From an uncultured delta proteobacterium (lineage in GTDB: Bacteria > Desulfobacterota > Binatia > UBA9968): 64,000 nt of DNA. The position numbers and the translations under genes were made by a program. A model generated the notes under the pieces. It saw nothing but the letters and a program-made list of their open reading frames with translations. It searched no databases and was not told where the DNA came from. The stretch spans positions 64,001 to 128,000 of the forward strand of contig CAWJZV010000041.1 in NCBI GenBank assembly GCA_963847445.1, written 5' to 3'. This document shows, piece after piece, positions 18,780 through 48,963 of the stretch. Each line of letters starts with the position of its first letter. Within the stretch, counting starts at the first letter, position 1.

Positions 18780-18852
18780 GTTCAAGGTTCAATGTTCAAG
18801 TGTTCAACGTTGAATCCGAATCCGGTTTCAAATCTAACCCGTTGTCTTGAAC
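18780..18852. repeat. degenerate GTTCAAN tandem array
   Basis: GTTCAAG GTTCAAT GTTCAAGT GTTCAAC ... TTGAAC. Confidence 0.65.
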
Positions 18853-19999: not shown

Positions 20000-20060
20000 G
20001 TTCAAGGGTTCAAGGTTCAAAAGTTCAAGGTTCCGGCCCGTTTCGGCTGAACTTTGAGCT
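20000..20060. repeat. degenerate GTTCAAN tandem array
   Basis: GTTCAAGG GTTCAAG GTTCAAAA GTTCAAG GTTCC ... TGAACTTTGAGC. Confidence 0.65.
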
Positions 20061-21637: not shown

Positions 21638-21667
21638 GGCTTGGTCCTCTTGAGTGCTGAAAGTCGA

Positions 21668-22822
21668 TCAGCCGATTTTGAATTCTCCCGGCGCGATTTC
21701 GACGATGCGGTTTTTTGCCGGATCGCGGATCGTGCCGATGGGATCTTGGCCGGCGGCGATGGCGTCCATGGAGTCCTTGTAAAGCTTGCGCAGCATGATC
21801 ACGCCTTTGTCCGACACGCCCAAGTGTTCAATGGTCCGGTCGCAAATTACCCCTTGGCTTTCTTGGGCAGCGCGGTCTTGGTCGCCGCGCGCCAGATAGC
21901 CGGTCGCTTCGTCGTAGCGGTACTGGCCTGGTGTGGTTTCAACCACGCCTTTGGCCGCGCCATCCGGCGGGATGTTCCCGGTCGGTTTGCCGTCGACCAC
22001 CGGCGCGAAGTAGACGGTGAAATGCATCGTGTGGGTGTCGTCGGCGGGCACGCGCCAACGCAGCGCTTCGTAGCCCGGATGATTGGCCGACATGCCGCAG
22101 GGATGGCTTTCCGGGACGTGATATCCGGTCTTGTTCATGGTCGGCATGATGAAGTAGCTGAGAGTCTGATAGCGCTCACCGCCGCCGGTGCGCGCGAAGG
22201 TGTCACGAATGCCGTAATCGAAGTACTCCGAGGTCAGCACCGGGTCGGTCCATTTTTTGGTATTGGGCGTGCGGTGCAGCCACTTGAAGTGATGTTGATC
22301 GACGGTGTTCTCGACCATCTGTAAATAATTGCAGCTGGCGATACGTCCTTGCAGCGAACGGATTCCGTCCTCGCGCACCAGCACGTCATAGCGCGGCAAC
22401 AACGGCGCCGGCTCCGGACCCAGGTAGGCGAAGATGACACCGGCAAGCTCTTCGACTTTGTAGGATGGCTGGCGCATTTTGTCTTTGAAATTCGCCTCCG
22501 GCGGTTCCGTGGGTTGTTCCAAACAGCGGCCGCTCACGTCGAACAGCCAGCCATGATAACAGCAGCGCAAGCCGCCGTCTTCGATGTAACCCAAGTGCAG
22601 CGATGTGCCGCGATGCGGACAGCGCGCGCCGATCAGGCCGAGCACGCCGTTCTCGTCACGGAATAAAACCAGATCTTCGCCGAGCAGCATGCGCCGCACC
22701 GGTTTGCCTTTGAGTTCGGCGGTGAAGCCGACCGGATGCCAGTAGCGGCGCATCATGGTGCCGCAAGGCGTGCCGGGCCCGACGCGGGTCAGATCGGTGT
22801 TTTCTTGGGCGGTGAGTGCCAT
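21668..22822 (-). CDS. Rieske non-heme iron oxygenase alpha subunit
   Basis: CPHRG..CCYHGW; ENTVDQHHFKWLH; QDRAAQESQG; EHLGVSD. Confidence 0.92.
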   Translation of the reverse strand: MALTAQENTDLTRVGPGTPCGTMMRRYWHPVGFTAELKGKPVRRMLLGEDLVLFRDENGVLGLIGARCPHRGTSLHLGYIEDGGLRCCYHGWLFDVSGRCLEQPTEPPEANFKDKMRQPSYKVEELAGVIFAYLGPEPAPLLPRYDVLVREDGIRSLQGRIASCNYLQMVENTVDQHHFKWLHRTPNTKKWTDPVLTSEYFDYGIRDTFARTGGGERYQTLSYFIMPTMNKTGYHVPESHPCGMSANHPGYEALRWRVPADDTHTMHFTVYFAPVVDGKPTGNIPPDGAAKGVVETTPGQYRYDEATGYLARGDQDRAAQESQGVICDRTIEHLGVSDKGVIMLRKLYKDSMDAIAAGQDPIGTIRDPAKNRIVEIAPGEFKIG

Positions 22823-26890: not shown

Positions 26891-27859
26891 TCAGGCCGCC
26901 AATTCCACCGAGGTGACGAACGGCAGGCCGCTGGCGACTTCACGCGCGCCGCTGTCGTCGATCAGCAGGAGGGTTCCGTCCGAGGTGCCGGCGATCATGC
27001 CATTACCCTCGGGCGTCGGGCAGAGGTGCATGACGCCGCCGTTTAGATTGTCGATGACGGTGTCCCAAGTCTTGCCTTTGTCGCTGCTGCGCAGGATCGC
27101 CGACATGGCGCCTTCTTCGCGTAGCCAGAGATTGGGCCGGCCACGGGCGGCGCCGACGTAGAGGACGCCGTGGTTATCTTCGGCGACGGAAATGCCGTAG
27201 TCATGATTTTTCGGCGAGATGTTTTCCCAGTGGCCGGCGCGGTCGGGGCTGCGGAAGCAGGCTTCGCCGCAGGCGAGAAAAACCATGCCGCTGTGTTGCT
27301 CGGACGCGAGGATCTCGTGGATGTCCATGTCGGTGAGCCCTTCGTTGCAGGGCTCCCAGCCGCGGCCGCCGTCGTCGCTCAACACCATGCCGCCGACTTC
27401 GATGCCGGCGTAGAGGCGATTCTTGTTTTCCGGCTCGTAGGCGAGGTAGCGCGTGCGCGACTGCAATTCCGGACTCGGCGGGAAGTTGGCGCCGGCACTG
27501 TGCAACCGCACGCCCTCTAGTTCCTCCCAGCCGCCGTTCTTGCTGCGGTACACCGCGGATGGGATCGTGCCGACCATGACGCCGCCGTCGATGGCCAGCG
27601 CCGAGTAGAGAAACATCTTCGGCACCTGCGGATCGGCGCGGTTCCAGTGGGCGCCGGCGTCTTTGGTGTAGAAAAGCCCGGAGTGTTCGGTGCCGGCGTA
27701 AATCTTCTTGGGATCTTCCGGGTCCACGGTCATGCAGGTGAGCGTCCAGTAACTCAAGTCGCGCTTGGTCTGGGTGAACTGCTTACCGTTCTGTTCGAAA
27801 CGGTACCAGCCGGAAAATGTCGCGACATGCAAGGCCTTCTTGCCATTCGTCCCGCTCAT
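26891..27859 (-). CDS. BNR/Asp-box beta-propeller protein
   Basis: TKDAGAHW, SDDGGRGW, SSDKGKTW; no signal peptide. Confidence 0.8.
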   Translation of the reverse strand: MSGTNGKKALHVATFSGWYRFEQNGKQFTQTKRDLSYWTLTCMTVDPEDPKKIYAGTEHSGLFYTKDAGAHWNRADPQVPKMFLYSALAIDGGVMVGTIPSAVYRSKNGGWEELEGVRLHSAGANFPPSPELQSRTRYLAYEPENKNRLYAGIEVGGMVLSDDGGRGWEPCNEGLTDMDIHEILASEQHSGMVFLACGEACFRSPDRAGHWENISPKNHDYGISVAEDNHGVLYVGAARGRPNLWLREEGAMSAILRSSDKGKTWDTVIDNLNGGVMHLCPTPEGNGMIAGTSDGTLLLIDDSGAREVASGLPFVTSVELAA

Positions 27860-28360: not shown

Positions 28361-28992
28361 CTAACTTTTCCAGATCTCTATAAGTTCTTTCGACTCCACA
28401 ACATCGGCGAAGCGCTCGATTCTTTTCAGCGCGGCGTTGTGGCCTTCCTCGGTGTAGGTGCCGACGCAATCGCGTATGATGACCATTGAAAAACCGCGGT
28501 TGTGGCCGTCGCGCACGGTCATCTCGACGCCGCCGTCGGTGGTGCAGCCGATCATGACGACGGTGCTGGCGCCGCGGTTGTGCATGATGGTTTCAAACTC
28601 GTTGCCGACGAACATGCTCGGCCGGCGCTTGTCGATGACGATGTCTTCGGGCGCCGGTTTGAAGGGTTTCATGATCTCCCAGTTGGTGCTGCCCTTCGCA
28701 CGGCGCGGCTTGAGCTTGCTCGGATGATCGACCTTCTCGTTGATCATCGCTCGGCGAATCCAGGTGACCGCCTCTTCGCTCCAGAGAAACGGCGTCTGGC
28801 GCGTGTAAACGGTCTTGACGCCGGCCTTGGCTGCGGTGGCGATGAGCGGCGGCGCGTGCGAATGAGCGCGTCTTTGTTAAACGAACCCCCGGCTTGATCG
28901 TTCTGCATGTCCCAGACTAGCAGGACCGTGCGTTTGGGATCGACGATCTCTTTTAGTTCGTTGGGAATCTGTCTACCGTCGAATTCGATCAT
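28361..28992 (-). CDS. isochorismatase/cysteine hydrolase, frameshifted
   Basis: LLVWDMQND, IDKRRPSMF, GCTTDGGVE.T.RDG (Gly where the catalytic Cys usually lies). Confidence 0.82.
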
Positions 28993-29294: not shown

Positions 29295-30290
29295 CTAGCG
29301 CGTCGATGCCAATTCTTTACGCGCTTTTTCGAGAAAACTGAAGTCGACGACCTGCGCGGCTGAGATCGGTTGCGCCACGTTGGAAGTCTCGCGGGTCAAA
29401 TCGATGAAGTATTGCACGGCTTGGGGGCTGATCACCGCGTCTTTGGCCAGGCCGCGCTTGAGATAGCCGAGCATTTCAGCGGCGAGCTTTTGATCGCTGA
29501 CACGCCACTGTTTCATCATGACGTCGCGCGCCTGCTCACGATTAGCTTCGTCGCTGACGAACTGCAAGCCGCGGTAGGTCGCGCGCACCATGCGATAAAC
29601 TTCATCCGGCTGCTGTTGGATGCGCGCCACCGAAGTGCCGAAGCCATTTTGCGGAAAACTCACGACGTCGCCCAAAAAGATCAGCTCGTTGTAGCCTTTG
29701 TTCACGGCGATAATATTCTCCGGCACCGAGAGTAATGCGGCGTCGACGACGCCCTGTTCCAATACCGCCAGCCGCCCGGCGCCCGATCCCCCCATCGGTA
29801 ATACCTGCACGTCCTTACCGGGTTCGAGGGCGAAATGTTTTAAGGCTTGATAGGCGAGGATCGTCGCCGAACCGCCGGGCGAGCTGCCGGCGACTTTTTT
29901 TCCTTTCAGATCGCGTGGCTCTCTGATCTCCTTGCGGCTGACGAAAGATTGCAGCGGTTTGGCGATGGTGAAGATCAAGATCTTTGCCGGGTAGTTGCGA
30001 GTCGCGGCAAGCGCCAGGCCGGTGAGTCCGGCGCTGTACTCGATCTCGCCCTTGAAGAAGGCGTTGTTCGCCGCGGCGAGAGACATCAGGATGATTTCCA
30101 GATCGATGCCTTCGTCTCGATAAAAACCTTTCTGATATGCCGCGTAGATTGGCAGAAAGCCAACGCTGGTGGCGGCGATGCCGAGGCGGAGCTTTTTGAG
30201 TGCAGGCTGCGCCGGTGCCGGCGAGCAAAACCAACTGTCTATGGCAAGCACGCCGATGCAGCAGAGCATTGGCAGGTAACGTCGAGACAT
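29295..30290 (-). CDS. NitT/TauT-type substrate-binding protein
   Basis: Signal peptide, FLPIY.A..KGFYRDEGIDLE, DLKGKKVA, FPQNGF. Confidence 0.85.
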   Translation of the reverse strand: MSRRYLPMLCCIGVLAIDSWFCSPAPAQPALKKLRLGIAATSVGFLPIYAAYQKGFYRDEGIDLEIILMSLAAANNAFFKGEIEYSAGLTGLALAATRNYPAKILIFTIAKPLQSFVSRKEIREPRDLKGKKVAGSSPGGSATILAYQALKHFALEPGKDVQVLPMGGSGAGRLAVLEQGVVDAALLSVPENIIAVNKGYNELIFLGDVVSFPQNGFGTSVARIQQQPDEVYRMVRATYRGLQFVSDEANREQARDVMMKQWRVSDQKLAAEMLGYLKRGLAKDAVISPQAVQYFIDLTRETSNVAQPISAAQVVDFSFLEKARKELASTR

Positions 30291-30306
30291 GGCGGTGTCT
30301 CCTTTA

Positions 30307-30510
30307 AAATCCGAAATTCGAAGCACCAAATCCGAAATAAACTCCCAACAAACAAATCCGAAATCCGAATATCGAAAGCGGCCCCGCGGACCGAAATAAA
30401 CCGCAGCCAAATCAACTCAAACTGGGAAAATCCAAAACGAGGAATCCGAATCAGGGTTGTTTGGAACATTGTGTTTTTGGTCATTGGAATTTGTTTCGAG
30501 TTTCGAGCTT
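30307..30510. repeat. AAATCCG / TTTCGAG heptamer array
   Basis: AAATCCGAAATTCGAAGCACCAAATCCGAAA..AAATCCGAAATCCGAAT and opposite TTTCGAGTTTCGAG. Confidence 0.65.
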
Positions 30511-30552
30511 TGCCTTTCTCAGTGAGTGCTTGGCGTTTTTTGGGGCGATGAT

Positions 30553-31542
30553 CTACGGGTTCGCGCCTTTGGCTTCGAGCTCTTTCCGCACTTCTTCCGC
30601 CCAGCGCAGGTCGAAAAAATTTTCCGCGGCGAGCGGCTTATCGAGCTTGAGCGGGATCCGCAGTTCGTTTTCGAGGATGCTCTTTACTCCTTCGGCGGAA
30701 GGCACGCCGGGGATGCCGGGCGGAAAGGCGCGGGTGTAGCTGCGGATCGCCTCGGTCAACATCGGCTTGGTGATGTTTCTAATTCTCAAGCGGCGTAGCG
30801 CGATGTCGGCAGCGTCTTCGGGCCGCTCTCGGATGAACAGTAAAGAGCGGGTCATCGCCCGGAGCCATCTTTTGACCTGTGCCGGGTTTTCGGCGAGCTT
30901 CTGATTGGTCACGACGTAGCCCTGAAAGGGTAGGGTGAAAATATCGCCCATGAAGACAAGTTTGCGCAGCCCTTCACGTTCGGCGGCGACGGTGCCGGCG
31001 GGATCAAGCACGACGGCGGCAACGTTACCGCTTTTGAGGCCGAGGATTTTGTCGCCGATGCTCGTGCCTAATGAGATTCTAGTGATCTCCTTGGCCGACA
31101 CGCCGGCACGTTCGGCATACAGCGTGATGAAGCGGTCTTCGCTGTCGCCGATCAGGGCGACGCCGATTTTCTTGCCCTTGAGGTCGGATCCCTGGCTGAT
31201 GCTTGGATGAACGACTAAATACCAAGTCGGTTTTTCGGTTTGATAGAAGATCGCCTTGAGCGGCGCACCGCGCACGGCGCCGCGCAGGCCGCTGCCGCCG
31301 GCGCCGCTGAAATCGACGTCGCCGCTGACCAATGCCGCGATGCCGGCCGGGCCACCAATGGCGATGGTTTCGTTGTCCAAGCCTTCGTCGCGGAAGAATT
31401 TACGCTCCTCGGCGCTGTACACGCTCAGATAATTGAGATTCGCGCCGGGGATGGCGGTGCGGATCTTTTCGGCGCGCGCGCTGGCGGCGAGCCAAGCGAC
31501 GCAGAACAGGACAAGGATGAAACTAACACGGCGGCCGATCAT
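30553..31542 (-). CDS. NitT/TauT-type substrate-binding protein
   Basis: Signal peptide, FFRDEGLDNE, ALVSGDVDF, DLKGKKIGV. Confidence 0.85.
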   Translation of the reverse strand: MIGRRVSFILVLFCVAWLAASARAEKIRTAIPGANLNYLSVYSAEERKFFRDEGLDNETIAIGGPAGIAALVSGDVDFSGAGGSGLRGAVRGAPLKAIFYQTEKPTWYLVVHPSISQGSDLKGKKIGVALIGDSEDRFITLYAERAGVSAKEITRISLGTSIGDKILGLKSGNVAAVVLDPAGTVAAEREGLRKLVFMGDIFTLPFQGYVVTNQKLAENPAQVKRWLRAMTRSLLFIRERPEDAADIALRRLRIRNITKPMLTEAIRSYTRAFPPGIPGVPSAEGVKSILENELRIPLKLDKPLAAENFFDLRWAEEVRKELEAKGANP

Positions 31543-32930: not shown

Positions 32931-33150
32931 GCGTCATTCCTCCGACCGGTCACCTTTAGTGTGATTGAATGCGGAATGTCAAGATGAAATGGATGCGGTG
33001 AGGACTGAATAATGTCAGGAGTGAAAAGTAAGCGGCTAAGTAGAAAATAGCCAGGAGTTTGCTTCACGGCCAATCGTATGGCGCAATGATGGGCATGATT
33101 CAATTGTTTGGCAAAGACTTCAGCGCCGGTGCTCCAAGTCATGTTGCTTC

Positions 33151-33181
33151 GATGGGTATCGCTACGCTCCACCCATCCTAC
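33151..33181 (-). repeat. GTAG REP overlapping the ferredoxin stop codon
   Basis: GTAG-GATGGGTGGAGCGTAGCGATACCCATC on the minus strand. Confidence 0.8.
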
Positions 33182-33393
33182 GGGGTTGCTGGCTCATATT
33201 GTGCCAACGCACCCGGCTCCGGGCAGTAGGGCAGGCAGTCGGCGCAGCCGGTGCATTCATTCTCAATCACTTCGTACATGTGATGGATGTCTTGCATCTT
33301 CGGATGGACGGCGCGTTCGGGGCAGACTTCGCGGCACAGGCCGCAGGCGATACAGAGGGTTTCGACGATTTTAACTTTCATGTTTGCGTTCAT
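33178..33393 (-). CDS. 2[4Fe-4S] ferredoxin
   Basis: CIACGLCREVCP and CTGCADCLPYCP. Confidence 0.9.
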   Translation of the reverse strand: MNANMKVKIVETLCIACGLCREVCPERAVHPKMQDIHHMYEVIENECTGCADCLPYCPEPGALAQYEPATP

Positions 33394-33394
33394 T

Positions 33395-34136
33395 TCACGC
33401 GCTGCCGCCCAAGGCGCGGCTCGGTTCGGGCGCCCAGGGGCGCAGGAGAAAATCGAAAACCTCTTCGATGGGCTTCTGGTCCTCGGGCGTTAACGCGTAG
33501 GCGTCGATCTGATATTTGCCTTCCATGAAGTGCATCAGTTCTTCCGCCGACTGGCTGTGCAGTTGATGGCGGATCAGGTCGTCGTCGATGACGCTCAACG
33601 TCGCGGCAATGCCGAGGCAGGCCATCGACTCGTTGTAATAGTGCTGGCCGGCGCGGGCGAGGGGGTGGATATGCGGGAACATGGCGGTCATGCCGAAATA
33701 GGACAGCTTCGGCTGGGTATTCGCCCGCGCATCGTCCATCAACTCTTCTTCGCGCTTGATGAAGCCGCCGCGCAGCAGCACATCGGCGTGGAGCTGGCCA
33801 TGCTTGACCTCGTCCCAGATTTGCCGGGCGCGCATGCGCTGCAGGTCGATATACTTTGGTTGCTGGTCGACGCTGACCGAAAGAATTTGCGTTGACATTT
33901 GTTTCAATGACATGAACGGTCCTTCGGCAGCGTAGCCGCCGCGCGCCCGCGCCGCTTTGTATTCGTCGCTGCCCGATCGCAAATCGTTCTCGGCGGCTTT
34001 GATCGCCTGCAGCACCAGCTTGTCCCACAGCGGCAGGCAGCGCTCGGTCTGGCGCAGGCGGAAGTCGACGCCGGGGCCGGTGAAGCCGGTCGGATACACC
34101 CATTTGTCTAGGAAATTCTGTCAGAATGGGATGCAT
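33395..34136 (-). CDS. ferritin-like diiron-carboxylate protein (complete ligand set)
   Basis: E59..DE97VKH100..E157..EE187LMH190 (ORF-track numbering); start MHPILTEFLDKWVYP restored by removing one base near 34113. Confidence 0.78.
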
Positions 34137-34146
34137 TTGAAGCTCC

Positions 34147-34227
34147 GTTCCAAAGGTTCCATAGTTCCAGGGGTTCCAGTCGTTCAAAACGTTCAAGCCG
34201 TTCAAATCGTTCGTTCATGGTTCAAGG
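34147..34227. repeat. GTTC(A/C)ANNN ~9-mer tandem array
   Basis: GTTCCAAAG GTTCCATA GTTCCAGGG GTTCCAGTC GTTCAAAAC GTTCAAGCC GTTCAAATC. Confidence 0.75.
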
Positions 34228-34228
34228 G

Positions 34229-34507
34229 CTAAGGTTGGCGCGGCCAGCGTTTGTTTTCGGTCCAGACTTCCGGCGGCGGTGGCACCATCGAACGGCCGGT
34301 GGCGGTTTCGACGATGGAGCCTTCCGCCGGACAGTACATCAAGCACACCGTGCAACCTGGATAGGTGCAGCGCTCGTCGATTTCCAAAAAATGCTGCGAT
34401 GTCGGCGACACGACGACGGCATTGATCTCGATCTCGCGGCAAGCGACGTAGCACATGCGGCATTCGGTGCATTTACCATGATCAATTTTGAGTTTTGGTG
34501 TCGCCAT
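34229..34507 (-). CDS. 2[4Fe-4S] ferredoxin (variant second motif)
   Basis: CTECRMCYVAC and CTYPGCTVCLMYCP. Confidence 0.85.
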   Translation of the reverse strand: MATPKLKIDHGKCTECRMCYVACREIEINAVVVSPTSQHFLEIDERCTYPGCTVCLMYCPAEGSIVETATGRSMVPPPPEVWTENKRWPRQP

Positions 34508-34540
34508 CTTGTTGTCTATCAGACCTATTGAAAAACGTTT

Positions 34541-34690
34541 GTTTCAAGTGTTCCAAAAAGTTCCAGAGGTTCCAATCGTTCAAGCCGTTCAAAACGTTCA
34601 ATGCGTTTGGTTCAAGGTCAGAGTTCGGAATCGATTGAACTTTTGAACGCCTTCGATATAACTCAGGCCAGGCTCGTGAACCCTTGAACG
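34541..34690. repeat. GTTC(A/C)A array with opposing TTGAAC arm
   Basis: GTTCCAGAG GTTCCAATC GTTCAAGCC GTTCAAAAC GTTCAATGC ... TTGAACTTTTGAAC..TGAACCCTTGAAC. Confidence 0.72.
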
Positions 34691-34701
34691 GCTGTTATCT
34701 T

Positions 34702-35451
34702 TTAATCTATATCCGCCTGCACGGTCACTTCTCCGGCTTTCTCTTCGGCCATGCCGAGGACGAAGCGGGCGGTTTCTTCGAGGAAGAACAGATAGTCGCG
34801 CTTGGTTTCCGTGCACAGGCGTTTGGCCAATTCGCTGTCGACCGCCTTGTGAACGTACCGCTCGACCTGGTGTTGGCCCATCAGCACATGGCTGCGGGTC
34901 TCGGCCAGTTGACTGTGAAATACCGCGCGCATGGATTGATCCGGCAACGACTCGGCGAATCTCTCGGTCCAGGCGAGCTCGATGACCTTCGGGCCGAGAT
35001 TGAGCGCGGCGATGCGGATGTTGTGCGGATAGTTGGCCAGCGCGCGCAGGCAAAATATATAGGCGCCAGTGCGGGTGGCGGTGCCGAACTGGCCGTAGGG
35101 ATGGGCGAACAGCGCGCGCTGGGTCGGCACGAAACGGCGGCGGAGAATCTCGTCGCAGTACTGCATTTCCTGCGACGACTCGTCGTAGGTCTGCTTGCCG
35201 AAGAGATAGGCGACAGCCGGCGGATACTCGTTTAGATTTATTCCTTGCGCCCAGCCGCCGTAGACATAGTAGAGCATGCGTTTGAGCGTCCACAGCCGGG
35301 CGAGCAGGCGAAAGCAGTGGTCGTTGGTGAACTTACCCGCGCGCGCGGCGTCGACCACGGCGTCCATCGGCGTGATGGCGGCGTCCTGCTCGCTTTGTTT
35401 GAGCAGCTGCAAGGCGAGGGCCGCGCCGGGTTTGTCGGAAGTAGATGACAT
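34702..35451 (-). CDS. ferritin-like protein with degenerate metal ligands (paralog of 33395-34136)
   Basis: QTYDESSQ..D..LR..F aligns to QIWDEVKH..D..LR..F; HSQLAETRSH..G..Q..Y aligns to HSQSAEELMH..G..Q..Y. Confidence 0.72.
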   Translation of the reverse strand: MSSTSDKPGAALALQLLKQSEQDAAITPMDAVVDAARAGKFTNDHCFRLLARLWTLKRMLYYVYGGWAQGINLNEYPPAVAYLFGKQTYDESSQEMQYCDEILRRRFVPTQRALFAHPYGQFGTATRTGAYIFCLRALANYPHNIRIAALNLGPKVIELAWTERFAESLPDQSMRAVFHSQLAETRSHVLMGQHQVERYVHKAVDSELAKRLCTETKRDYLFFLEETARFVLGMAEEKAGEVTVQADID

Positions 35452-35526
35452 CGCGTTTGATCAACTTGTCTTTTGGTCAATCAAGGATTAACCGTCATCC
35501 AGTGGGTGGTTAGGACAGGGCGAGAG

Positions 35527-36643
35527 TTAGCTCGCTGCCAACAAGCGCTCGTGCCCCTTCTTTGAGATCGCCGCCAATTGATCGGTGATCAGCGTCCAAC
35601 TTTCGCCGTTGTCTTCGCTGCAGTAAACCTCGCCGCCAGTTGTCCCGCCGAAGATCGCGCAGTTGCCGTTGGCTTCTTCGAGACAGAGCGCGCCGAACTC
35701 ATGCTTCAAGCTTGCCGGCAGTCCGCCGGCGAGGCGCTGCCAATTTTTGCCGCCGTCCTTGCTGCGATAGATTTTTCCTTCGGCACGGGCAGCCGGTCCG
35801 GCTTTGCGCCAGGTCACCGGATTATGCTCGGCGGCGGCGACGAACATGGTGTCGGGATTTTTTGGATTCCACACGAAACCGTCGGGATAGACATCTTTCG
35901 CCCAATCCGTCCGCCGTCCAGCGTTCCCAGCTGCCGCCGCCGGTGTGGGTGACGTAAAGTCCGGCGCCGCCGGTGACGTAGATTCTCTGCGGATCGCGCG
36001 GGTCGATCAGACAACGGTGCACGTCGTAGAAGTGTTCCACCGGGCGGTTCTTGTCTTTGTACAGGCCCACGGTGTTGAGCTCGCGCCAGCTCTTGCCGAG
36101 GTCGGTGCTTTTGAGAAACGCGCCTTGCTCGACGCAGGCGTAGAGCGTGTGCGCATCGCGGGGATCGAAGGTAATGAATTTCGTATGGGCGATATGCGGC
36201 GGCGCCGGGAAGGACCATTGGCCGGTGGTCGGCACTTCGCGCAGCGAGGGAATTTCGCTCCAATGCATGCCCAAGTCTTCGCTGACGAACAAATGCGCCG
36301 GTTGGGTGCCGGCGTAGACGCGGACTTTGCCGTCGACGACGTGGGCGGCCAGGCTGTAGACGTCGTGGATCGTCATGCCGTTATCGCGGCGCTCCCAGGT
36401 TTTGCCGCCGTCGGCGCTGGCGTGAATCGAGCCGAAGAACGCGCCGGCGAACATGGTGCCGGTGGTCTGCTCGAAGATGATCGCGCTGATATGCTGACCG
36501 CGCAGGGCGCGCTGGGTTTCGCGCCAGCCATCGTTGCCGCGCTCGAATAGCACAAGCCCATCCTGGGTGGCGACCCAAAGCTGCTTGGAGCGCTCGCCCG
36601 CCGAATAAACATTGGTCCCGCCGTGAGAGAGTCCGATTGCCAT
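35527..36643 (-). CDS. BNR/Asp-box beta-propeller protein, frameshifted near 35895
   Basis: SADGGKTW, SEDLGMHW, STDLGKSW, SKDGGKNW, SEDNGESW; GGAGGTG RBS; no signal peptide. Confidence 0.82.
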
Positions 36644-36809
36644 AGGTCACCTCCGCTATGCTTGCTTTGATTTGCCAACCTTGCGATAGGCGCACTCTAG
36701 CAACCGAGGTTCTTCGCCGTCAATGGTTCGCCGCGAGATTAAGTTTGGCGCCATTGACGGCGCGGCGCCGCTTCGGTTAGTTTCCGGCCATGGGCTTTGA
36801 GGGTTGCCA

Positions 36810-37814
36810 ATGAGAATCGCTAGACTGTATTTGCTGCTGCTGGCACTGGTTGGGAGTTTGTTGGCGCTTGAGAGCCACGCGCAGATCAGCAAAACCACGA
36901 CCTCCTATGTTTCCGATTCGGCCGGTGTCCTGCCGCTCTGGCTCGCCAAGGAAGCCGGTATCTTCGCGCGCAACGGCTTGGATGTGCAGGCGGTGCGCGT
37001 GCACGCCTCGGTCGGAGTCATGGCGCTGATGTCCGGCGAGCTGCAATTCGTTCTGATATCCGGACCGGTGGCGGTCGAAAGCGCCCTGCGCGGCTCCAAT
37101 ATGGTCTACGTCGCCGGCGGCATGTCGACGCTGGACTTTGTCCTCGTCACCCGGCCGGAAATCAAAACTGCCGAGCAACTCAAAGGCGGCATCGTCGGCC
37201 TGTCGGCGATCCGCGGCGCCAATCCGACCGCCACCCGATTCGCGCTGCAAAAGCTTGGCCTGGCGCCCAAGGACGTATCGCTCCAGGTGGTCGGCGGTAT
37301 CAGCGAGCGAATCGCCAGCCTGCGCCTGGGAAAAATCCACGGCACACTGTTCAGTCCGCCGCAAAGCATCACGGCGCAGCGCGAAGGCTTCAATGCCCTG
37401 GCGGATGTCGCCGAACTCGGCTTGCCGTTCGTGCATATCGGCGTGGCGACCACCCGCGCCGTCATCCGGGATAAACCGGACATCGTGCGCCGCTACGTCA
37501 AATCCCATGTCGAGGCGGTCGCGCTGATGAAAACCGATCGCGAATTGTCGATCAAGGTGCTGGCGAAATATCTTGGGCAAATAAAAGAGCGCGATGTGCT
37601 GGCGCAATCTTATGACACCGCCGCGCCGGACAACCGGATCTCGCGCAAACAGTATCCGTCCGTCGCCGGTCTGCAAATGGCCCTCGATCTATTGGCGGAC
37701 GATAATCCGAAGGCGAAGGTTGCCAAACCGGAGGACTTCATCGATAACCGTTTTATCAAAGAGCTCGACGACAGCGGCTATATCGACAGTCTGTATAAGC
37801 TCAAGCCGCGCTGA
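36810..37814 (+). CDS. NitT/TauT-type substrate-binding protein
   Basis: Signal peptide, PLWLAKEAGIFARNGLDV, FIKELDDSGYID. Confidence 0.85.
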   Translation: MRIARLYLLLLALVGSLLALESHAQISKTTTSYVSDSAGVLPLWLAKEAGIFARNGLDVQAVRVHASVGVMALMSGELQFVLISGPVAVESALRGSNMVYVAGGMSTLDFVLVTRPEIKTAEQLKGGIVGLSAIRGANPTATRFALQKLGLAPKDVSLQVVGGISERIASLRLGKIHGTLFSPPQSITAQREGFNALADVAELGLPFVHIGVATTRAVIRDKPDIVRRYVKSHVEAVALMKTDRELSIKVLAKYLGQIKERDVLAQSYDTAAPDNRISRKQYPSVAGLQMALDLLADDNPKAKVAKPEDFIDNRFIKELDDSGYIDSLYKLKPR

Positions 37815-37903
37815 GAGAACTAAAAATTCGCGATGGCGTGGTGCGGTAGTTAACTTGACTGAAATGGTTCATTTCTCTAGGCTCCGTGGCGGGGGACAAA
37901 CAA

Positions 37904-38860
37904 ATGTTTGAGCGCCGATCTTGGCTTTGCCTAACAGTGCTATTGCTCGTTGGCAGCATCCGGCCCGCTGCCATCGATGCCCGGATGGTCGTCGGCGTGT
38001 CGACGGTGAACGTCGCCTTCTTGCCAATCTATCTGACCCAAGACAAAGGCTTCTTCAAAGACGAGGGCTTGGACGTTCTCGTCGTCATGTTCAACGCCGG
38101 CGCGACTAATCTTCAGGCGATGATCGGCGGCGACGTGCAGGTCATGGCCGGCGGCGTGCCGGAGACGGTGCTTGCCAGGGCAGGCGGCTTGGATATCAAA
38201 AATTTTTGGGCGATCTCCAATCTTATGCCGTTTCAGATCTACGGCAGCCCGAGCCTAAAATCGCTGAAGGACGGCAAGGGGAAAAAGTTTGCCATCAGCC
38301 GCTTCGGCTCGTTGTCGGAATTTCTTACCCGCTCGGCGCTGCGCCGGGCCGGAGTCGATCCCAAAGACGTTACCATGGTGCAGATCGGCGCCACGCCGGC
38401 GCGCTTTACCACGCTGGCAAGCGGCATCGTCGATGCGACGATTCTATGGTTTCCCGTCACCGAGCGCGCCAAAGCGGTTGGCTTGAATAAGCTCTTCGAT
38501 CTGAAAGAGCTCTATCCCAACTGGACCAACGTCGGCTTTGTCGCCCGCGAAAGCTGGCTCGCCAAAGAAAAAGAGCAAGCGACGAAATTTTTGCGCGCTT
38601 ACCAGCGTGGGGTGAAGCACACTCGCGAGAATCGCGACGATGGCATTCGCGCCTTGAGAAAATATGTTGGACTAGACGCCGCCGAAGCCGCCGCCGGATA
38701 CGACGAGTACCGCGATTCCTTTCCAATGGACGGGCGCATCCTCGACGCCGGCATTACCGCGACGGTCGAGCAGGAGATCGAGACCGGCAGGCTAAAGGGA
38801 AAAATCTCGCTGAGCGAGATGATCGACGGCAGCTTCATCAATTTGCTCGGAAAAAAGTAG
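37904..38860 (+). CDS. NitT/TauT-type substrate-binding protein
   Basis: Signal peptide, KGFFKDEGLDV, KFAISRFGS, KFLRAY. Confidence 0.85.
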   Translation: MFERRSWLCLTVLLLVGSIRPAAIDARMVVGVSTVNVAFLPIYLTQDKGFFKDEGLDVLVVMFNAGATNLQAMIGGDVQVMAGGVPETVLARAGGLDIKNFWAISNLMPFQIYGSPSLKSLKDGKGKKFAISRFGSLSEFLTRSALRRAGVDPKDVTMVQIGATPARFTTLASGIVDATILWFPVTERAKAVGLNKLFDLKELYPNWTNVGFVARESWLAKEKEQATKFLRAYQRGVKHTRENRDDGIRALRKYVGLDAAEAAAGYDEYRDSFPMDGRILDAGITATVEQEIETGRLKGKISLSEMIDGSFINLLGKK

Positions 38861-38893
38861 CGTATCGCTGGTTCATTCAGGGGAACCCAAAAC

Positions 38894-39856
38894 ATGTTCA
38901 CCGTTTCGATTAGAATTTTCGCCGCCGTGTTGGCGTCTTGGCTCTGTGCTGGCGGGAGCGCTCAGGCCAAGCCGATCACGCTGGCGTACAATACCAATTC
39001 TCTCAACGTGATGTTGCCGCTTCTGGTTGCTCAGGAGTTAGGATTTTTTACCGCTGAAGGTTTCGAAGTCACCCCGGTTTACGTGCGCAGCGGACCGACG
39101 GCGATGGCGGCGATGGTGAGCGGGTCGGCGGATTATTCCATCGTCGGCTCGACCACGGTGGTGCAAGCGATCGCCAAAGGCATTCCAGCCGTAGTGATCG
39201 GTAATTATGTCCGCCACGTTAACTGGATGCTGATGGGCGGCACCGGTGTGACTCATCTCAATGCGATCAAGGGCCAGGTGGTCGGCGTAACTTCGGCCGG
39301 GGGCATGACGGAGTTCTTGACGGTTGAGGCGCTGGCACGCCGCGGCCTCAAGCGCGATCGCGACTATCGGATTCACTACGCGGGCAACAGTCCGGCGCGG
39401 GTGTTGGCGTTAGAGACGAAGATTATCCAAGCCGCGGCTTTTTCGCCGGGAGAACGGGTGGCGCTCGAACCGAAGGGTTACACATTGCTCATGGATATGG
39501 TCCAGGTCATACCGGAATTTCCCTTGAGCATTCTCGCCAGCAGCCGGCGCAAGTTGGACAGCAGTCCGGTTGAAGTGGAAGCGTTCCTGCGCGGGTTGCA
39601 TCGGGCGATGGAAGTGATTCGCACCGACAAGGATCGCGCCGCCGCTGCGGCCTTCAAAAAGACCGCGCGCGGCGATCTCGCCAGGGAGCGCAAAGCGTTG
39701 GACTATCTGGTCAACGATTATTCCATCGTCATCAGCAAAGAAAATATCCAGGCGCTGATCTATGCCGCCGGCGTCGAGGCCGAAGCGCGCAAACTTGGCG
39801 GCGCCGAAAAGTTTTTCGCGGCGGAGCCCCAAGCCAAAGCGGTTGGGCGGCGCTGA
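38894..39856 (+). CDS. NitT/TauT-type substrate-binding protein
   Basis: Signal peptide, VAQELGFFTAEGFEV, AFLRG. Confidence 0.82.
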   Translation: MFTVSIRIFAAVLASWLCAGGSAQAKPITLAYNTNSLNVMLPLLVAQELGFFTAEGFEVTPVYVRSGPTAMAAMVSGSADYSIVGSTTVVQAIAKGIPAVVIGNYVRHVNWMLMGGTGVTHLNAIKGQVVGVTSAGGMTEFLTVEALARRGLKRDRDYRIHYAGNSPARVLALETKIIQAAAFSPGERVALEPKGYTLLMDMVQVIPEFPLSILASSRRKLDSSPVEVEAFLRGLHRAMEVIRTDKDRAAAAAFKKTARGDLARERKALDYLVNDYSIVISKENIQALIYAAGVEAEARKLGGAEKFFAAEPQAKAVGRR

Positions 39857-42521: not shown

Positions 42522-43628
42522 CTAATCCAGCCAATCCTTGTCCTTCAATTTTCTCGGCAAGTAGGTTTTCGTCAAGTACTGAAAATCTTTGTTGGCGAGC
42601 GCGTCGAGCTCGAATTTGAGGCCGCTCGTCAGCATGCCTTTGATTTCGTTCTGCCATTCTTTTTTCTGAAACCACTTGTACTTCATCAGTTCTTTGGCGC
42701 GGTTGATGTCTTTGTCGTTCAACTTGATGCCGACGTTGCGCGGCAGGCCGTAGCGCTCGGGGTCGGCGCTGGAGAAGCCGATGAACTTCGCCTTGGGGAT
42801 CGCCATGCGTTCGCTTTCGAAGGCGAGATTGATCGAGCCCTGCTTGATGACCGAGTAGATGTAGTAGCCCCAGGGATCGTTGTCGACGAGAACGTAGACC
42901 GGCAGCTTGTAGTCTTCGTGCAGCCGGCGCGCCAGCCGGCGCACGCCGCGCGGCGGCTGGCCGTTGCCGGTGAGCAGGATGCAATTGTACCGGCGCCAAA
43001 ATTTATCTTCCGACAGCCGGTTCCATTGGGTGCCTTTTTCGACCAGCAGGACGAAGTCCGCGGTGCACTTGCTGATCTGAATATACTCCGGCTCGACGAT
43101 GGACGGCACCGAGTAGCCGCCTTTGCCGAGCTTGGTGCAATCGACCCGGTCGCCGTCGTCGACGATGGTCAACGGCCCGACGACGGTGCCGGAGTTTTCG
43201 GCGCGGACATGCAGTTCTTCGCGCAGCGCTTCGAGGGTGACTTCGAGATCCTCGATCAGCGGGTCGGATTCGTTCTGGCCGTCGAAGGTGTTTTCGTGGG
43301 AGTTCTTGATCGTGTGCTTGGTGCGGTAATAAATTTCCCGCAGCGAAGTGGTCAGGTTGGCGCGCTGCAGCTCGGCCAGAGCGTCGGCGACGAGCACCGT
43401 CTGCATGAATTTTTTGGCCATGCCGACGTTGAAAAAGGTGCGCGCCTGCTTGCGCCGGCCCATCTCGATGATGCCGCGCTTGGCGTTGAAGTTGACGTTG
43501 GCCAGGCTGCGCACCGGAATCGCCAGCGACGGGTCCTGGCTGCGCTGCGCCGCGGTGATCACGACATCGGCGACGCCGATGAGTTTTTTTTCGACTACGC
43601 CGTTATTTTTTGGTTTTTTTGCCGCCAT
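42522..43628 (-). CDS. top6A: DNA topoisomerase VI subunit A
   Basis: SLREIYY catalytic Tyr, ENTF..Q.ESD..IEDLE, LLVEK, G.GQP, DNDPWG Toprim. Confidence 0.95.
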   Translation of the reverse strand: MAAKKPKNNGVVEKKLIGVADVVITAAQRSQDPSLAIPVRSLANVNFNAKRGIIEMGRRKQARTFFNVGMAKKFMQTVLVADALAELQRANLTTSLREIYYRTKHTIKNSHENTFDGQNESDPLIEDLEVTLEALREELHVRAENSGTVVGPLTIVDDGDRVDCTKLGKGGYSVPSIVEPEYIQISKCTADFVLLVEKGTQWNRLSEDKFWRRYNCILLTGNGQPPRGVRRLARRLHEDYKLPVYVLVDNDPWGYYIYSVIKQGSINLAFESERMAIPKAKFIGFSSADPERYGLPRNVGIKLNDKDINRAKELMKYKWFQKKEWQNEIKGMLTSGLKFELDALANKDFQYLTKTYLPRKLKDKDWLD

Positions 43629-45649
43629 TTTTCTTTCCTGTCTTTTTGCCGGGTTTTTCCAGAGCTAGAGTCATTTGCTTGGTGTCTGGGGATTTCGCGC
43701 CGCGCTGTTGCCGCGGTTTGGTGGCGCGCGGCTTGGTCGTTGTTGGCCGCTGGCGATTTGCCCTTCGCCATTGAGGGCAGCGCCGGTTCTGCATCTGCGG
43801 CAGCGCTGTCCTCCGTCGACTCAGCCTCCGTCGGCGCCGCGCTTGGCAGTTCGGGTGCGTCGCCCTCGGTGCCTTCGTCGGTGACGATAATCGAATGCGG
43901 CAAGCCTTCCGGCCCGCCGCCATCGTGGCCGAGGATCTCGTCGGTCTTTTGTCCGCCGGTGCGCTTGGTGGCGATCTTCTGCAACTGTTCTTTGAGCTTT
44001 TCCTTGGCGAGCTTGCCGCCTTTCAGCCGGGCGCAGGCTTCGACGACTTCCTCGATGTAGAGCTCGAAGATGTTGCGCCGGCGGAATTCATCCTTGGCCC
44101 GTTCCCGGCGGCGCAAGAAAACTCCCAGCCGCCGGCCGCACTCTTGCAAGGCGAGTTTGATTTCTTTTCTGATCTCGTCGTAGTCGGCGATGGCTTCTTT
44201 GGACTCGCTGGTGAACGGCACCCAGACCGACGCCATGTGCACGAAGATCACCATCGGTCCGGCCGGCAGCGCGCCGCGCGACTGCGCCACGCCGTAGTTA
44301 CGCCAAGTGGTGTCGAGGACCGATTTGAAAGTCGCGCAGGCGGACTGCTGGTAGAGCAGCGGCACGCGGTTGGCGTAGCGGATCACCGAGGCTAGCTCGT
44401 TGTCGTCGTCTCGGTCTTCGCCTTCGGCGAGCGGGATGTTTTGCTCTTTCACTTTTGCCGCTTGTTCGGGATTCTTGCCAAAGGCCAAGCCGGCTTCGAT
44501 CACAAATGGATTGCCGCGATAGACCGCCGGCGGCCGGGTCACGGCGGTGTAAAATTCGCCTTTGATCTGTTTGTACAGTCCGTGGAGTATCGCCCGCTCG
44601 CCGATGGGCGAGATGCAGTTGCTCGGCGGCGCCATGATCTTGGTCGACTGGATCGCCTTGTAAAACGTTTCGGCGGCGGCGCCGTGCAGGTCGCGCGGCT
44701 TGGCGTTTGGCGAAAGCTTGGCGGTCTTGCAAATGTCCTGCGCCAGACTCGACGACACCCGGCTAAACTCGCTGGCGAGAAATCCCACCAGGGAGTGGCT
44801 CTTGGTGTCATGGAGCATCTTCAGCATCATGCCGAATTCTATGCCATAGGGATGCGGCTTGATCTCGCGCGGCTGCGGCGGCAGCTCGTCAATGGTCCGC
44901 GGGTATTGTTTAATCTCGCCTTCCGGCGTGTGGTAGACGAGCTTGACATGGGGATTGGCGATGGCCGTTTGTTCCAGGTATTCGTCCACCGAGGCGCGGC
45001 CCTTTTGATAGCGCCCTTCGATTTCCAGACTGACCTGGGTGCCGCGGTGGTTTTCCCAGTCGATCTTTTTGTTCTCGAAAATTCGCGGCTCGTTTTTCTT
45101 GGTATCGATCTGCACTTCGAAATAGTGCGCCGGCGCCTTGGCGCTGGTGCGCGAAATGATCTGCACCGGCTTGCCGGTGGTGAGCTGGGCGTACATGCCG
45201 GCGGCGGAGATGCCGATGCCTTGCTGGCCGCGGCTCATGCGCAGGCGATGAAACTTCGAGCCGTAGAGCAGCTTGGCGAAGATCGGCGGGATCTGCTGGC
45301 GCACGATGCCGGGACCATAGTCGATCACGGTGACGCGAAAGCGCGTCGCCTGGCTCGGCGCCGGCGTGACGCCATTGTTGGACACGACTTCGAGCTTGAC
45401 GATGACTTCTGGCAAAATGCCCGCCTCTTCGCAGGCATCCAGCGCGTTGTCGACCGCTTCCTTGATACAGGTGAGCAGCGACTTGCGCGGACTGTCGAAA
45501 CCCAACAGGTGGCGATTCTTGGTAAAAAACTCCGATACGGAAATTTCTCTCTGGCGCGCGCCCATCTCGGCGGCGGTGACGGCTTTTCTCGGTTCGGCCG
45601 GCGCCGCCGGTGTGGCTGCCGCTTCGGCCTTTGGCATGGGTTTAGACAT
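43603..45649 (-). CDS. top6B: DNA topoisomerase VI subunit B
   Basis: EISVSEFF.KN, KEAVDNALDACEEAG, DYGPGI, YGSKF, SRGQQGIGISA, RYANRVPLLY, VPFTSESKEAI; tail frame uncertain (stop 43603 or 43595). Confidence 0.95.
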
Positions 45650-46968: not shown

Positions 46969-47970
46969 TTATTGTTTTAGCCGCCCTTCGTTTTTCAATT
47001 CCTGCTGCGCCTGTTTGAGAATCCGATCGTTGACGACCCGGTCGAGGGTGAATTTTTTGTCGACCAAGCCGGTGCGGTGGTCGTCGTCGAGCATGGTTTG
47101 AATGCCGTCCCAGGCCACCGACATATCGGCGGCGTAACCGGGGCTAAACAGATCGTAAGAACGCTGGACGATTTCCGGGTCGCCCTGCAAGCCGGCTGCG
47201 AAGCCGATCTTGATCGCTTCCTGTTTGTTGAACTTGGCGAATTGCATGCCGAGAATCAGCGCCTTTAAGAACCGCTTGGTCGTATCCGGGCTTTTCTCCA
47301 GCATCTCGCCGCGGCTGACGTAGACGCTCTGGGGCACGCGCAGGGCCTCATTGAAATTGGCGATCATGGCGAAGCCCTTGTCGAGCAGTTTGACGGTGTC
47401 TTCGGCGGAAAACGGCGCGGCGGCGATCAGTCCTTTTTCCAACGCGCTGGCGCGCACCACGGTTTGACCGATCGAGCGCAAGGTGACGTCTTTATCGGGT
47501 TCGAGATTGTTGCGTTTGAGATAGAGCCTAACGGTGAAATCGGAAAAGGACCCAGCGCCAGTGATGCCGACAATCTTGCCGCGCAGGTCTTCGATCCGTT
47601 TGATGTCTTTGTTGCCGATCAGCGTGTAGTTGGTGTAGTTCGACGTCGACGCGATGATGTTCATGTCAAGGCCGCGTGCTTTACTGCGGATCGCCGCCTG
47701 GGCGCCGCCGATGGTGGCGAAGTCGATGTTTCCCGACACCAGTGCCATGACTGCGGTTGGGCCGCCACTGACGAAGATTTGCTCTACGGTGAGACCCTGA
47801 TCGCGGAAGTAGCCGCGGTGATTGGCGACGCGGAAAGGCAGCTGCGCATTCCACGCCAAGCTGACGAAGACGACACGGAGGTTTTTCTTTTCCTGGCCCG
47901 ACGCGAGCTGGGCGGATAGGAGCGACAGGACCAATAGAACGGGTAGCATTCTGCAACAGCGAGAGTACAT
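46969..47970 (-). CDS. NitT/TauT-type substrate-binding protein
   Basis: Signal peptide, GYFRDQGLTVE, DLRGKIVG, RFLKA. Confidence 0.85.
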   Translation of the reverse strand: MYSRCCRMLPVLLVLSLLSAQLASGQEKKNLRVVFVSLAWNAQLPFRVANHRGYFRDQGLTVEQIFVSGGPTAVMALVSGNIDFATIGGAQAAIRSKARGLDMNIIASTSNYTNYTLIGNKDIKRIEDLRGKIVGITGAGSFSDFTVRLYLKRNNLEPDKDVTLRSIGQTVVRASALEKGLIAAAPFSAEDTVKLLDKGFAMIANFNEALRVPQSVYVSRGEMLEKSPDTTKRFLKALILGMQFAKFNKQEAIKIGFAAGLQGDPEIVQRSYDLFSPGYAADMSVAWDGIQTMLDDDHRTGLVDKKFTLDRVVNDRILKQAQQELKNEGRLKQ

Positions 47971-47984
47971 CGTTGCGCCCTGTG

Positions 47985-48953
47985 CTAGCGTTTGCGTTCC
48001 AACTCTTCTTTGACTTCCGCGGCGAGCTTCAGCGACAAAAACTTTTCCGGCGCGACATCTTCTTTGATTTTGAGCGGCGCTTTGACGTCGAACTCGATGA
48101 CGTTCTTGATCCCTTGCGCCGACGGCACGCCGGGAATGCCGTCGGGCAAGGCGCGCACGAAGCGGCGGATGCCTTCGATGACGATGGGCCGGCTCGGGCT
48201 GCCCATGGGGATTTTCTTTATAGCGATGTCGGCGGCCTCTTCCGGCCGCTCGCGGATGAACATGAGGGCGCGCATCATGGCGCGCAGCCAGCGTTTGATA
48301 TCGCCGGGCCGCTTGGCGATTTTCTCATCGCTGGCCATGAAGCCTTGAAACGGGTAGGGAAACAGGTCGCCTAAAAATGTCAGCGTGCGCAAGCCTTCTT
48401 TTTCAGCGATGAACGCTTCGTCGCCGTTGACCGTGGCGGCCTGGATCGCGCCCGATTTCAGTCCCAAAATGGTCGTGGTGGTCGAGCGCGACGGCATGGC
48501 GACGCGGATCAGATCGCGCGGCCCAACGCCGTTGCGTTCGGCGTAGGCTGTAATCAAAGCGTCCTGGGTGTCGCCGACGGTGCCGACCGCGACGCGCTTA
48601 CCTTTGAGATCGGCACCCTTGGCGATCTCCGGCGCGGCGATCAAGTACCAGGTCACTTTCTCGGTCTGGAACATCACCGCTTTGATCGGCGCGCCGCGCA
48701 GCGCCGCGCGCATGCCGGTGCCGCCGGCGCCGCTATAGTCGACCTCGCCGCTGACCAAGGCGGCGATGGCGCTGCTGCCGGGAATGACGATGGTTTCGTT
48801 TTCCAAATTCTCATCGCGAAAGTAGCCTTTGACCTCGGCCACCGGCACGCTCAGATAGTTCAACGTGGCGCGCGGAATGACCGTACGCACACGCTCGGCA
48901 TTAATATTAGTCGGTGCGAGAAGCGCAAAGGCCAAGACGATGGCTAGTTTCAT
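47985..48953 (-). CDS. NitT/TauT-type substrate-binding protein (paralog of 30553)
   Basis: LNYLSV, SGAGG, QTEK.TWYL, PFQG, GIPGVPSA shared with 30553-31542. Confidence 0.85.
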   Translation of the reverse strand: MKLAIVLAFALLAPTNINAERVRTVIPRATLNYLSVPVAEVKGYFRDENLENETIVIPGSSAIAALVSGEVDYSGAGGTGMRAALRGAPIKAVMFQTEKVTWYLIAAPEIAKGADLKGKRVAVGTVGDTQDALITAYAERNGVGPRDLIRVAMPSRSTTTTILGLKSGAIQAATVNGDEAFIAEKEGLRTLTFLGDLFPYPFQGFMASDEKIAKRPGDIKRWLRAMMRALMFIRERPEEAADIAIKKIPMGSPSRPIVIEGIRRFVRALPDGIPGVPSAQGIKNVIEFDVKAPLKIKEDVAPEKFLSLKLAAEVKEELERKR

Positions 48954-48963
48954 GGTATTGCCC

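Follow-up and report, generated by a model that had tools for sequence, protein, structure and literature searches.

A conserved four-gene cassette of uncultured bacteria and its candidate ferredoxin-driven diiron oxygenase

What kind of enzyme could be produced by a run of small genes that places two related diiron-type proteins next to two ferredoxins is the question raised by a locus in the genome of an uncultured delta proteobacterium of the class Binatia (assembly GCA_963847445.1). The window analyzed here is the whole stretch of 64,000 nucleotides at positions 64,001 to 128,000 of contig CAWJZV010000041.1; all coordinates refer to it. The initial annotation, made from the sequence alone, described the locus as five co-directional genes, and these are indeed present, on the minus strand. 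Four of the five, in the order B-Fd2-A-Fd1, constitute a real, conserved and unnamed unit. In our judgment there is a somewhat better than even chance that this unit encodes a ferredoxin-driven heterodimeric diiron oxygenase, for which we infer the metal binding, the O2 chemistry, the flow of electrons and the substrate. The coding features are as follows:

33178-36643, minus strand: protein-coding set of five co-directional reading frames (propeller, B, Fd2, A, Fd1)
35527-36643, minus strand: BNR/Asp-box beta-propeller gene (371 residues in relatives), a clade-specific accessory outside the conserved core
34702-35451, minus strand: protein B, 249 residues, a degenerate paralogue of A
34229-34507, minus strand: Fd2, 92 residues, a 2[4Fe-4S]-type ferredoxin
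33395-34136, minus strand: protein A (246 residues in relatives), the candidate catalytic diiron subunit
33178-33393, minus strand: Fd1, 71 residues, a 2[4Fe-4S] ferredoxin

A scan for the locus pattern in one genome per species (185,579 species) yielded 46 loci. The order B-Fd2-A-Fd1 is seen in 43 of these, and in the other three, which are cut by contig ends, the remaining genes fit. Among the 28 Binatia-type loci (L001-L028), 25 have the propeller gene immediately upstream and three are truncated by contig ends; none of the 18 remaining loci (L029-L046) has it. Because the propeller is confined to the Binatia-type clade, the conserved unit consists of four genes and not five; the gene order proposed initially is accordingly retained for B, Fd2, A and Fd1, and the propeller is no longer counted as part of the system. 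The propeller protein (Pfam BNR, Sortilin-Vps10 and PSII_BNR; NCBIfam F510_1955-like, below the cut-off), the product of the DUF3500 gene that follows the cassette in 10 loci and the NMT1-type binding proteins are lineage-specific neighbors. When neighboring genes were clustered, with the many clusters of antisense open reading frames (ORFs) of GC-rich DNA disregarded, none was conserved across all clades among the 46 loci. In the full-text literature, supplements outside the search, no description of such a cassette was found, in agreement with the initial view that the layout is undescribed.

The hosts of the cassette are exclusively uncultured lineages from soil, sediment and groundwater, labeled as Binatia or "delta proteobacterium" metagenome-assembled genomes, Methylomirabilota/Rokubacteria, Dehalococcoidia, Gammaproteobacteria and a few others, the last of which may be binning errors. 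The genome of the window carries a single copy each of A and B. Protein A is encoded in 12 of the 24 other species genomes of the same genus (including the unpublished genome G305; 11 of 23 without it), in none of 16 genomes of the two sister families in the order, and in none of a sample of 300 further genomes of the phylum. Given this patchy distribution, together with the 87-91% identity to Binatia proteins, the sequences suggest that the cassette has spread laterally.

The role of protein A as the candidate catalytic diiron subunit is supported by its ligand motif. In the numbering of the 246-residue relatives, the motif consists of E71, E109xxH112, E169 and E199xxH202, that is, four carboxylates and two His, in segments spaced by 38 and 30 residues. 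These positions are 12 higher than those of the initial annotation (E59, E97xxH100, E157 and E187xxH190), which fit an ORF of 234 residues, and the full diiron pattern that it recognized is upheld by the homologues. None of the six residues varies among 39 homologues (56-89% identity) or in a 14-row alignment to which eight more distant relatives (19-29% identity) contribute; these eight were drawn from a whole-library profile search (111 proteins, mostly fragments, with no named family among them). The only invariant columns of the 14-row alignment are F25, E71, E109, H112, D118, G124, E169, E199, H202, G206 and Q220, and Q195 is kept in at least 90% of it. Among the A orthologues encoded in the 46 loci, 45 carry E-E-H-E-Q-E-H at positions 71, 109, 112, 169, 195, 199 and 202, the 46th being cut by a contig end.

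The difference in numbering reflects an interruption of the gene in the window. Translation from the ATG at 34136 gives MHPILTEF before leaving the conserved frame, which is picked up again at LDKWVYPTG, and the intact ORF (33395-34099, 234 residues) starts in another frame, from a GTG at 34099. Because the homologues, which are 246 residues long and begin MHPIL..FL.KWVYPTG, continue from MHPIL in one frame, the window A gene carries one surplus base near 34112-34120. In the propeller gene, likewise, a single surplus base near 35907 breaks the frame into ORFs at 35822-36643 and 35527-35874, and tblastn with the intact 371-residue propeller of L001 places the frame switch there, at residues 245/246. 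Contigs of relatives from public sequencing runs are one letter shorter at 35907 (one contig in X1, depth 7.3 of 7.3; one in X2, 17 of 17) and at 34118 (X9) or 34120 (X1). The surplus bases in A and in the propeller may be assembly errors or real. An isochorismatase-family gene (28361-28992, minus strand) also appears, by its translation, to be frameshifted: its 128-residue ORF covers only profile positions 61-174 of 175, and an upstream ORF of 82 residues begins like the missing N-terminus and then leaves the frame, which brings the one-base shifts to three within 9 kb.

Protein B resembles A at a level that depends on the breadth of the profiles compared. BLASTP finds 22% identity over 120 residues (E 5e-5); hhalign aligns the narrow profiles of the two proteins (A1 and A2) at only E 5.5e-4 with 30% probability, and the wide A profile (A3) with the B profile at E 4.9e-17, with a probability of 98.8% over 170 columns. 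On this evidence from sequence comparison, B is a true homologue of A, and the paired stretches QIWDEVKH/QTYDESSQ and HSQSAEELMH/HSQLAETRSH of A and B, on which the initial claim of homology with lost ligands was built, align as described there. At the six ligand positions of A, B carries K57, E91, Q94, K155, T185 and H188, with Lys, Lys and Thr replacing three carboxylates and, in the clade of the window, Gln replacing one His. K155, T185 and H188 are found in all 45 B orthologues; of the 42 rows that can be aligned at position 57, 35 have K, 5 have E and 2 have N, and at position 94 H (31 rows) predominates over Q (11 rows, that of the window among them). Because the residues at the ligand positions differ from those of A over the 45 orthologues, the canonical metal site is, judging by these substitutions, lost in B everywhere, most thoroughly in the clade of the window.

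A heteromer of A and B, as originally suggested, is also what the complex model predicts. The modeled A+B pair has an ipSAE of 0.84 (0.71, 0.86 and 0.84 in three runs), the best of three controls being 0.00; 58 of 80 solved complexes and 2 of 110 mismatched pairs attain that mark, counts that hold only roughly, own alignments having been used. At least 82% of the contacts are common to the runs, the partner pLDDT is 86, and the predicted interface joins residues 72-133 of A with residues 58-116 of B, which are equivalent parts of the two chains. The model supports the binding of A and B as a heterodimer.

Both ferredoxins contain eight Cys and match Fer4_21 (38.9 bits, and 36.8 bits for Fd2, against a cut-off of 35). 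Fd1 has the classical double CxxCxxCxxxCP pattern, matches Fer4_21, Fer4 and other Pfam families, and is similar to many dicluster domains in the PDB; the translation of Fd2 shows CxxCxxCxxxC and Cx4CxxCxxxCP. The two are 33% identical (E 7e-7), a likeness that fits a duplicated module, so that the initial impression that A and B each precede a 2[4Fe-4S] ferredoxin of their own, as if a module had been duplicated, holds. In the window, Fd1 starts one base past the stop codon of A, and in most loci the stop of A and the start of Fd1 abut or overlap. Among the listed A homologues, the best 120 of 323 at E <= 0.001, a single intact fusion of A with Fd1 is seen (P0049, 319 residues); in a second long form of A (P0050) the ferredoxin frame is lost, and no fused A forms longer than 432 residues were found, which is weak evidence.

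The fold of A and B was approached through families, structures and ligands. No Pfam or NCBIfam model matches A, B or the orthologues of either in other clades (in Pfam, nothing at E <= 10 for the A and B of the window and nothing at E <= 1 for P0001 and the other-clade orthologues). The profiles of PF14518 (Haem_oxygenas_2) and PF03070 (TENA_THI-4), of the ferritin clan and of PF05138 (PaaA_PaaC) match neither protein, and a genome-wide PF14518 search skips the cassette locus. Among PDB sequences, single-sequence queries with A or B retrieved nothing at E <= 10, and the A1 and A2 profiles retrieved chance-level rows only. The predicted models of both proteins are heme-oxygenase-like helical bundles, and in an exhaustive VIA-align search heme-oxygenase-like proteins, several of which are dimetal enzymes, take all of the first 19 places for A and the first 22 for B, with higher Z and longer alignments (about 200 residues). 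The VIA-align values were:

TenA: 13.1 for A (206 residues, root-mean-square deviation 3.5), 14.1 for B
CADD: 12.4 for A, 13.2 for B
HrmI: 11.8 for A, 11.5 for B
UndA: 11.6 for A, 10.0 for B
BesC: 10.1 for A, 11.5 for B
PaaC: 9.6 for A
PaaA: 8.3 for B
Aldehyde-deformylating oxygenase (ADO): 9.5 for A, 9.9 for B
Dps-like: 8.8 for A

As an independent fold test, seven PF14518 proteins and two PaaA/PaaC-family proteins of the window's genome were compared with the wide A profile. The PF14518 proteins gave a weak hhalign match (E 3.3e-4, 38% probability, 165 columns), in a register in which H112, E169 and Q195-x3-E199-x2-H202 fall on H, E and H-x3-D-x2-H, and the PaaA/PaaC-family proteins gave E 0.26. 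The same genome contains 25 PF14518 and 4 PaaA_PaaC matches, a large expansion of small dimetal-type proteins that is separate from A and B.

The main alternative concerns this fold: with the same function, A and B could be ferritin-like four-helix-bundle diiron proteins, as in the initial annotation, the heme-oxygenase-like match being an artefact of shallow AlphaFold modeling, a reading that we regard as unlikely, although it retains an appreciable share of the probability. According to a 2026 review, heme-oxygenase-like dimetal oxidases/oxygenases (HDOs) bind metal through three His and three carboxylates from three core helices, with an extra Glu in about a quarter, whereas ferritin-like enzymes draw their ligands from four core helices, in sets that range from four carboxylates and two His to one carboxylate and nine His (PMC13108848). 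The E/ExxH/E/ExxH arrangement of A, on four separate segments that lie in different predicted elements, is the classical ferritin-type set of four carboxylates and two His, and A lacks the set of three His and three (or four) carboxylates of HDOs, having Q195 where the first His of H-x3-D-x2-H aligns. Several matches below threshold point in the same direction: the wide A profile against the PDB reached MmoX at E 0.02 (its second ExxH on E199xxH202) and the ribonucleotide reductase subunit R2 at E 0.25, and the distant A relative P0345 matched COQ7, R2 and rubrerythrin at E of about 0.02. So does DUF455, one of two leads from the ESM Atlas at 0.88-0.90 (the other is PF14518), which otherwise returned only the family's own unnamed clusters. 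Against a ferritin-like fold stand the heme-oxygenase-like top rows of the VIA-align search, the hhalign E value of 3.3e-4 with PF14518 as opposed to 0.26 with PaaA/PaaC, and the match of the wide A profile to the TenA homologue 3oql, also below threshold (E 0.06). As modeled, A thus joins a heme-oxygenase-like fold to a ferritin-type ligand set and is filed in neither family.

The cassette can be compared with several known systems. The HDOs (UndA, CADD, SznF, BesC, HrmI, AetD and RohS) are similar to A in size (about 250 residues), and His and Glu on equivalent helices line up in the weak profile alignment. They differ in having three His with three or four carboxylates where A has four carboxylates and two His, Gln replacing one His (PMC13108848), and no PF14518 or PF03070 match links them to the A or B of the window at E <= 10. 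The conserved degenerate paralogue and the two dedicated ferredoxins also set the cassette apart from HDOs; the main text of the 2026 review uses the words "ferredoxin" and "heterodimer" zero times (PMC13108848).

The phenylacetyl-CoA 1,2-epoxidase PaaABCE, as described in PMC4498308, combines catalytic PaaA with structural PaaC, which share one fold at 17% identity. A catalytic subunit with a homologous structural partner is likewise what A and B appear to be, the heterodimer being predicted here by the model, and some cassette lineages share the aromatic thioester context. However, PaaA and PaaC are subunits of a ferritin-like multicomponent monooxygenase, unlike the predicted fold of A and B, and have no detectable sequence relation to A; moreover, PaaABCE needs a bridging protein, PaaB, and the reductase PaaE (FAD, [2Fe-2S]), and the cassette contains no PaaB- or PaaE-like gene (PMC4498308). 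The benzoyl-CoA epoxidase BoxAB, in the same source, is a diiron oxygenase fed via [4Fe-4S] clusters, of which BoxA holds two, so the initial annotation's restriction of known diiron systems to [2Fe-2S]/FAD reductases is not supported (PMC4498308). BoxA is also an FAD/NADPH-dependent reductase, in contrast to the free ferredoxins of 71 and 92 residues of the cassette, near which no flavoprotein is encoded, and BoxB is monomeric and needs no structural subunit, unlike A with B (PMC4498308). The small ferritin-like diiron oxidases MiaE, ADO and COQ7 rank below the heme-oxygenase-like matches, have no family match to A or B and, unlike the cassette, lack a paralogous partner and private ferredoxins.

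Hints of the substrate come from the gene neighborhoods. In L029-L032, the cassette is directly followed, on its own strand, by an adenylation-carrier-thioesterase (A-T-TE) gene and an aromatic amino-acid lyase gene (locus coordinates of about 8800-13250); a family III CoA-transferase gene lies upstream in L029, L031 and L032, L030 having A-T-TE and lyase only, and an Ldh_2 gene is also found upstream in L029 and L031. In L037, genes for the alpha and beta subunits of a Rieske ring-hydroxylating enzyme directly follow the cassette; Rieske genes are nearby in L038, L042, L043 and L046, and the Dehalococcoidia loci contain Rieske/VanA-like, MmgE/PrpD and amidohydrolase genes. The window itself has LigXa-like Rieske genes at 20360-22822, 11 kb from the cassette. 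Because the A-T-TE/lyase and Rieske contexts recur, an aromatic acid or its thioester is proposed as the substrate with low confidence, and with lower confidence still for the clade of the window; the aromatic substrate envisaged in the initial annotation is thus hinted at by other lineages and lacks that context in the window's own clade.

Put together as a mechanism, A would bind two iron ions through E71, E109, H112, E169, E199 and H202, with Q195 nearby, within the predicted heme-oxygenase-like helical bundle. B, with Lys in place of the two "lone" glutamates and Thr in place of the last, would form a pseudo-symmetric heterodimer with A and act as its structural or substrate-shaping partner. 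Fd1, which would be translationally coupled to A and is sometimes fused to it, and Fd2 would pass electrons from the low-potential pool of the cell to A. The reduced diiron site would then activate O2 to hydroxylate, epoxidize or desaturate a small organic molecule, most likely an aromatic acid, free or as a thioester with CoA or a carrier protein.

Two further explanations dispense with such an oxidation. The cassette might encode a ferredoxin:peroxide or ferredoxin:oxygen oxidoreductase, a rubrerythrin-like detoxifier without an organic substrate, in which the ferredoxins reduce a diiron site that in turn reduces H2O2 or O2. The diiron-type motif with low-potential ferredoxins, the absence of an NAD(P)H reductase or substrate-related gene from the cassette and the lack of a neighbor common to all clades would agree with this role, which nevertheless appears improbable: the cassette is tightly joined to A-T-TE and ammonia-lyase genes in four loci, a housekeeping role would be expected to be wider than the patchy distribution described above, and a conserved degenerate partner is typical of substrate-oxidizing diiron enzymes such as PaaAC (PMC4498308). 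The weakest candidate is an O2-independent, ferredoxin-driven reductive enzyme acting at a dimetal site, for example to deoxygenate or reduce an aromatic thioester: an enzyme with two low-potential dicluster ferredoxins is more usual in anaerobic reductive chemistry, and the abstract of a density functional theory study mentions a suggestion that BoxB may also deoxygenate its epoxide (PMC5489048), yet the Rieske oxygenases among the neighbors need O2 and the characterized two-metal proteins among the fold matches all use it (PMC13108848), so that we consider this reading very improbable.

Several observations count against a ferredoxin-driven heterodimeric oxygenase of heme-oxygenase-like fold. 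Low-potential 2[4Fe-4S] ferredoxins are rarely used by oxygenases. The alignments are shallow and the models of A and B middling (mean pLDDT of 81.9 and 76.0, respectively), with only 58-61 for the E71 segment, which is a loop in the model of A, and Foldseek against the PDB gave no match at E <= 0.001 for either model, the best rows being TenA, UndA, AetD and MiaE. The ligands of A are of the ferritin type rather than the HDO type (PMC13108848). B in most lineages keeps [D/E]xxH along with the invariant E95, E158 and E184, and because these are retained, its site may have been remodeled and may bind metal. The aromatic context comes from other clades, that of the window having the propeller, DUF3500 and binding proteins instead, and in the window itself both A and the propeller gene carry frameshifts.

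The noncoding features of the locus are the following:

36694-36723, minus strand: promoter-like site TTGACG-18-TAGAGT with TG, about 50 nucleotides upstream of the propeller start
34550-34601, no strand: GTTCMA repeat array of 9-nucleotide repeats (sense-strand TKGAAC), in the spacer between B and Fd2
34147-34205, no strand: second GTTCMA repeat array, in the Fd2-A spacer
33150-33182, no strand: REP-like hairpin GATGGGT...ACCCATC, which straddles the stop codon of Fd1 (33178-33180) and the bases just downstream

A promoter consensus scan found three sites against 1.1 expected, and the site upstream of the propeller, a consensus match only, is weak evidence. At the hairpin, metagenome contigs pile up in all four public runs, with a summed depth of up to about 3476 and many loose ends, which points to a very common REP-like repeat; the hairpin probably marks the end of the operon, and a terminator scan found nothing above shuffles. 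Rfam has zero matches at E <= 1 over 33000-37000, and a structured RNA element in the cassette spacers was rejected, the spacers folding no better than shuffles (z -0.55, and +1.23 for the Fd2-A spacer). Tandem GTTCMA arrays with a period of 7-9 nucleotides are also present at 18780-18807 and 20000-20028, all four arrays being intergenic. The window contains 13 overlapping GTTCMA matches against 0 expected, and the genome 601 against 1 in a reversed control, often as inverted pairs; the arrays occupy the same spacers in 18 of the 28 Binatia-type loci and represent a dispersed genome-wide repeat family. With regard to expression, metatranscriptome contigs of library X15, 90-96% alike, cover parts of Fd1, A, Fd2 and the propeller (33191-33795, 34254-34489 and 35954-36620), a weak hint that relatives of the cassette are expressed, as DNA carry-over could also give such contigs; in six RNA libraries, X15 among them, only 0.05-0.06 of the sampled words are present.

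Elsewhere in the window, a second BNR propeller paralogue (26891-27859, minus strand, 322 residues) lies downstream of the cassette, and a similar gene is found 1-5 kb downstream in many Binatia-type loci. At least 10 genes for NMT1/THI5-like periplasmic binding proteins (12949-16537, 29295-31542, 36804-39856 and 46969-49932) represent a strong local expansion. The genes for the two subunits of topoisomerase VI, A and B, lie side by side (42522-45649, minus strand) and encode Spo11/Toprim and transducer domains; topoisomerase VI is uncommon in bacteria.

In the fullest form of the proposal, which we put forward tentatively and hold to be distinctly less probable than not, the cassette would represent a new O2-activating branch in which a heme-oxygenase-like fold carries four carboxylate and two His ligands within an obligate heterodimer with a Lys-plugged pseudo-subunit, served by 2[4Fe-4S] ferredoxins of its own, two in number, and acts on aromatic acyl thioesters as an analogue of PaaABCE or BoxAB that is independent of their fold. 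If so, it would be the first enzyme of the heme-oxygenase-like fold known to have its own electron-transfer chain. For most heme-oxygenase-like diiron enzymes the natural electron donor is unknown, artificial reductants being usual in assays, and a cassette that encodes its own two ferredoxins would make electron delivery directly testable. The ligand set of A, which lies between two known structural classes of diiron oxygenases, bears on how these classes relate to each other, and the position of the cassette beside genes for aromatic-acid chemistry in several lineages indicates a possible role in aromatic compound turnover.

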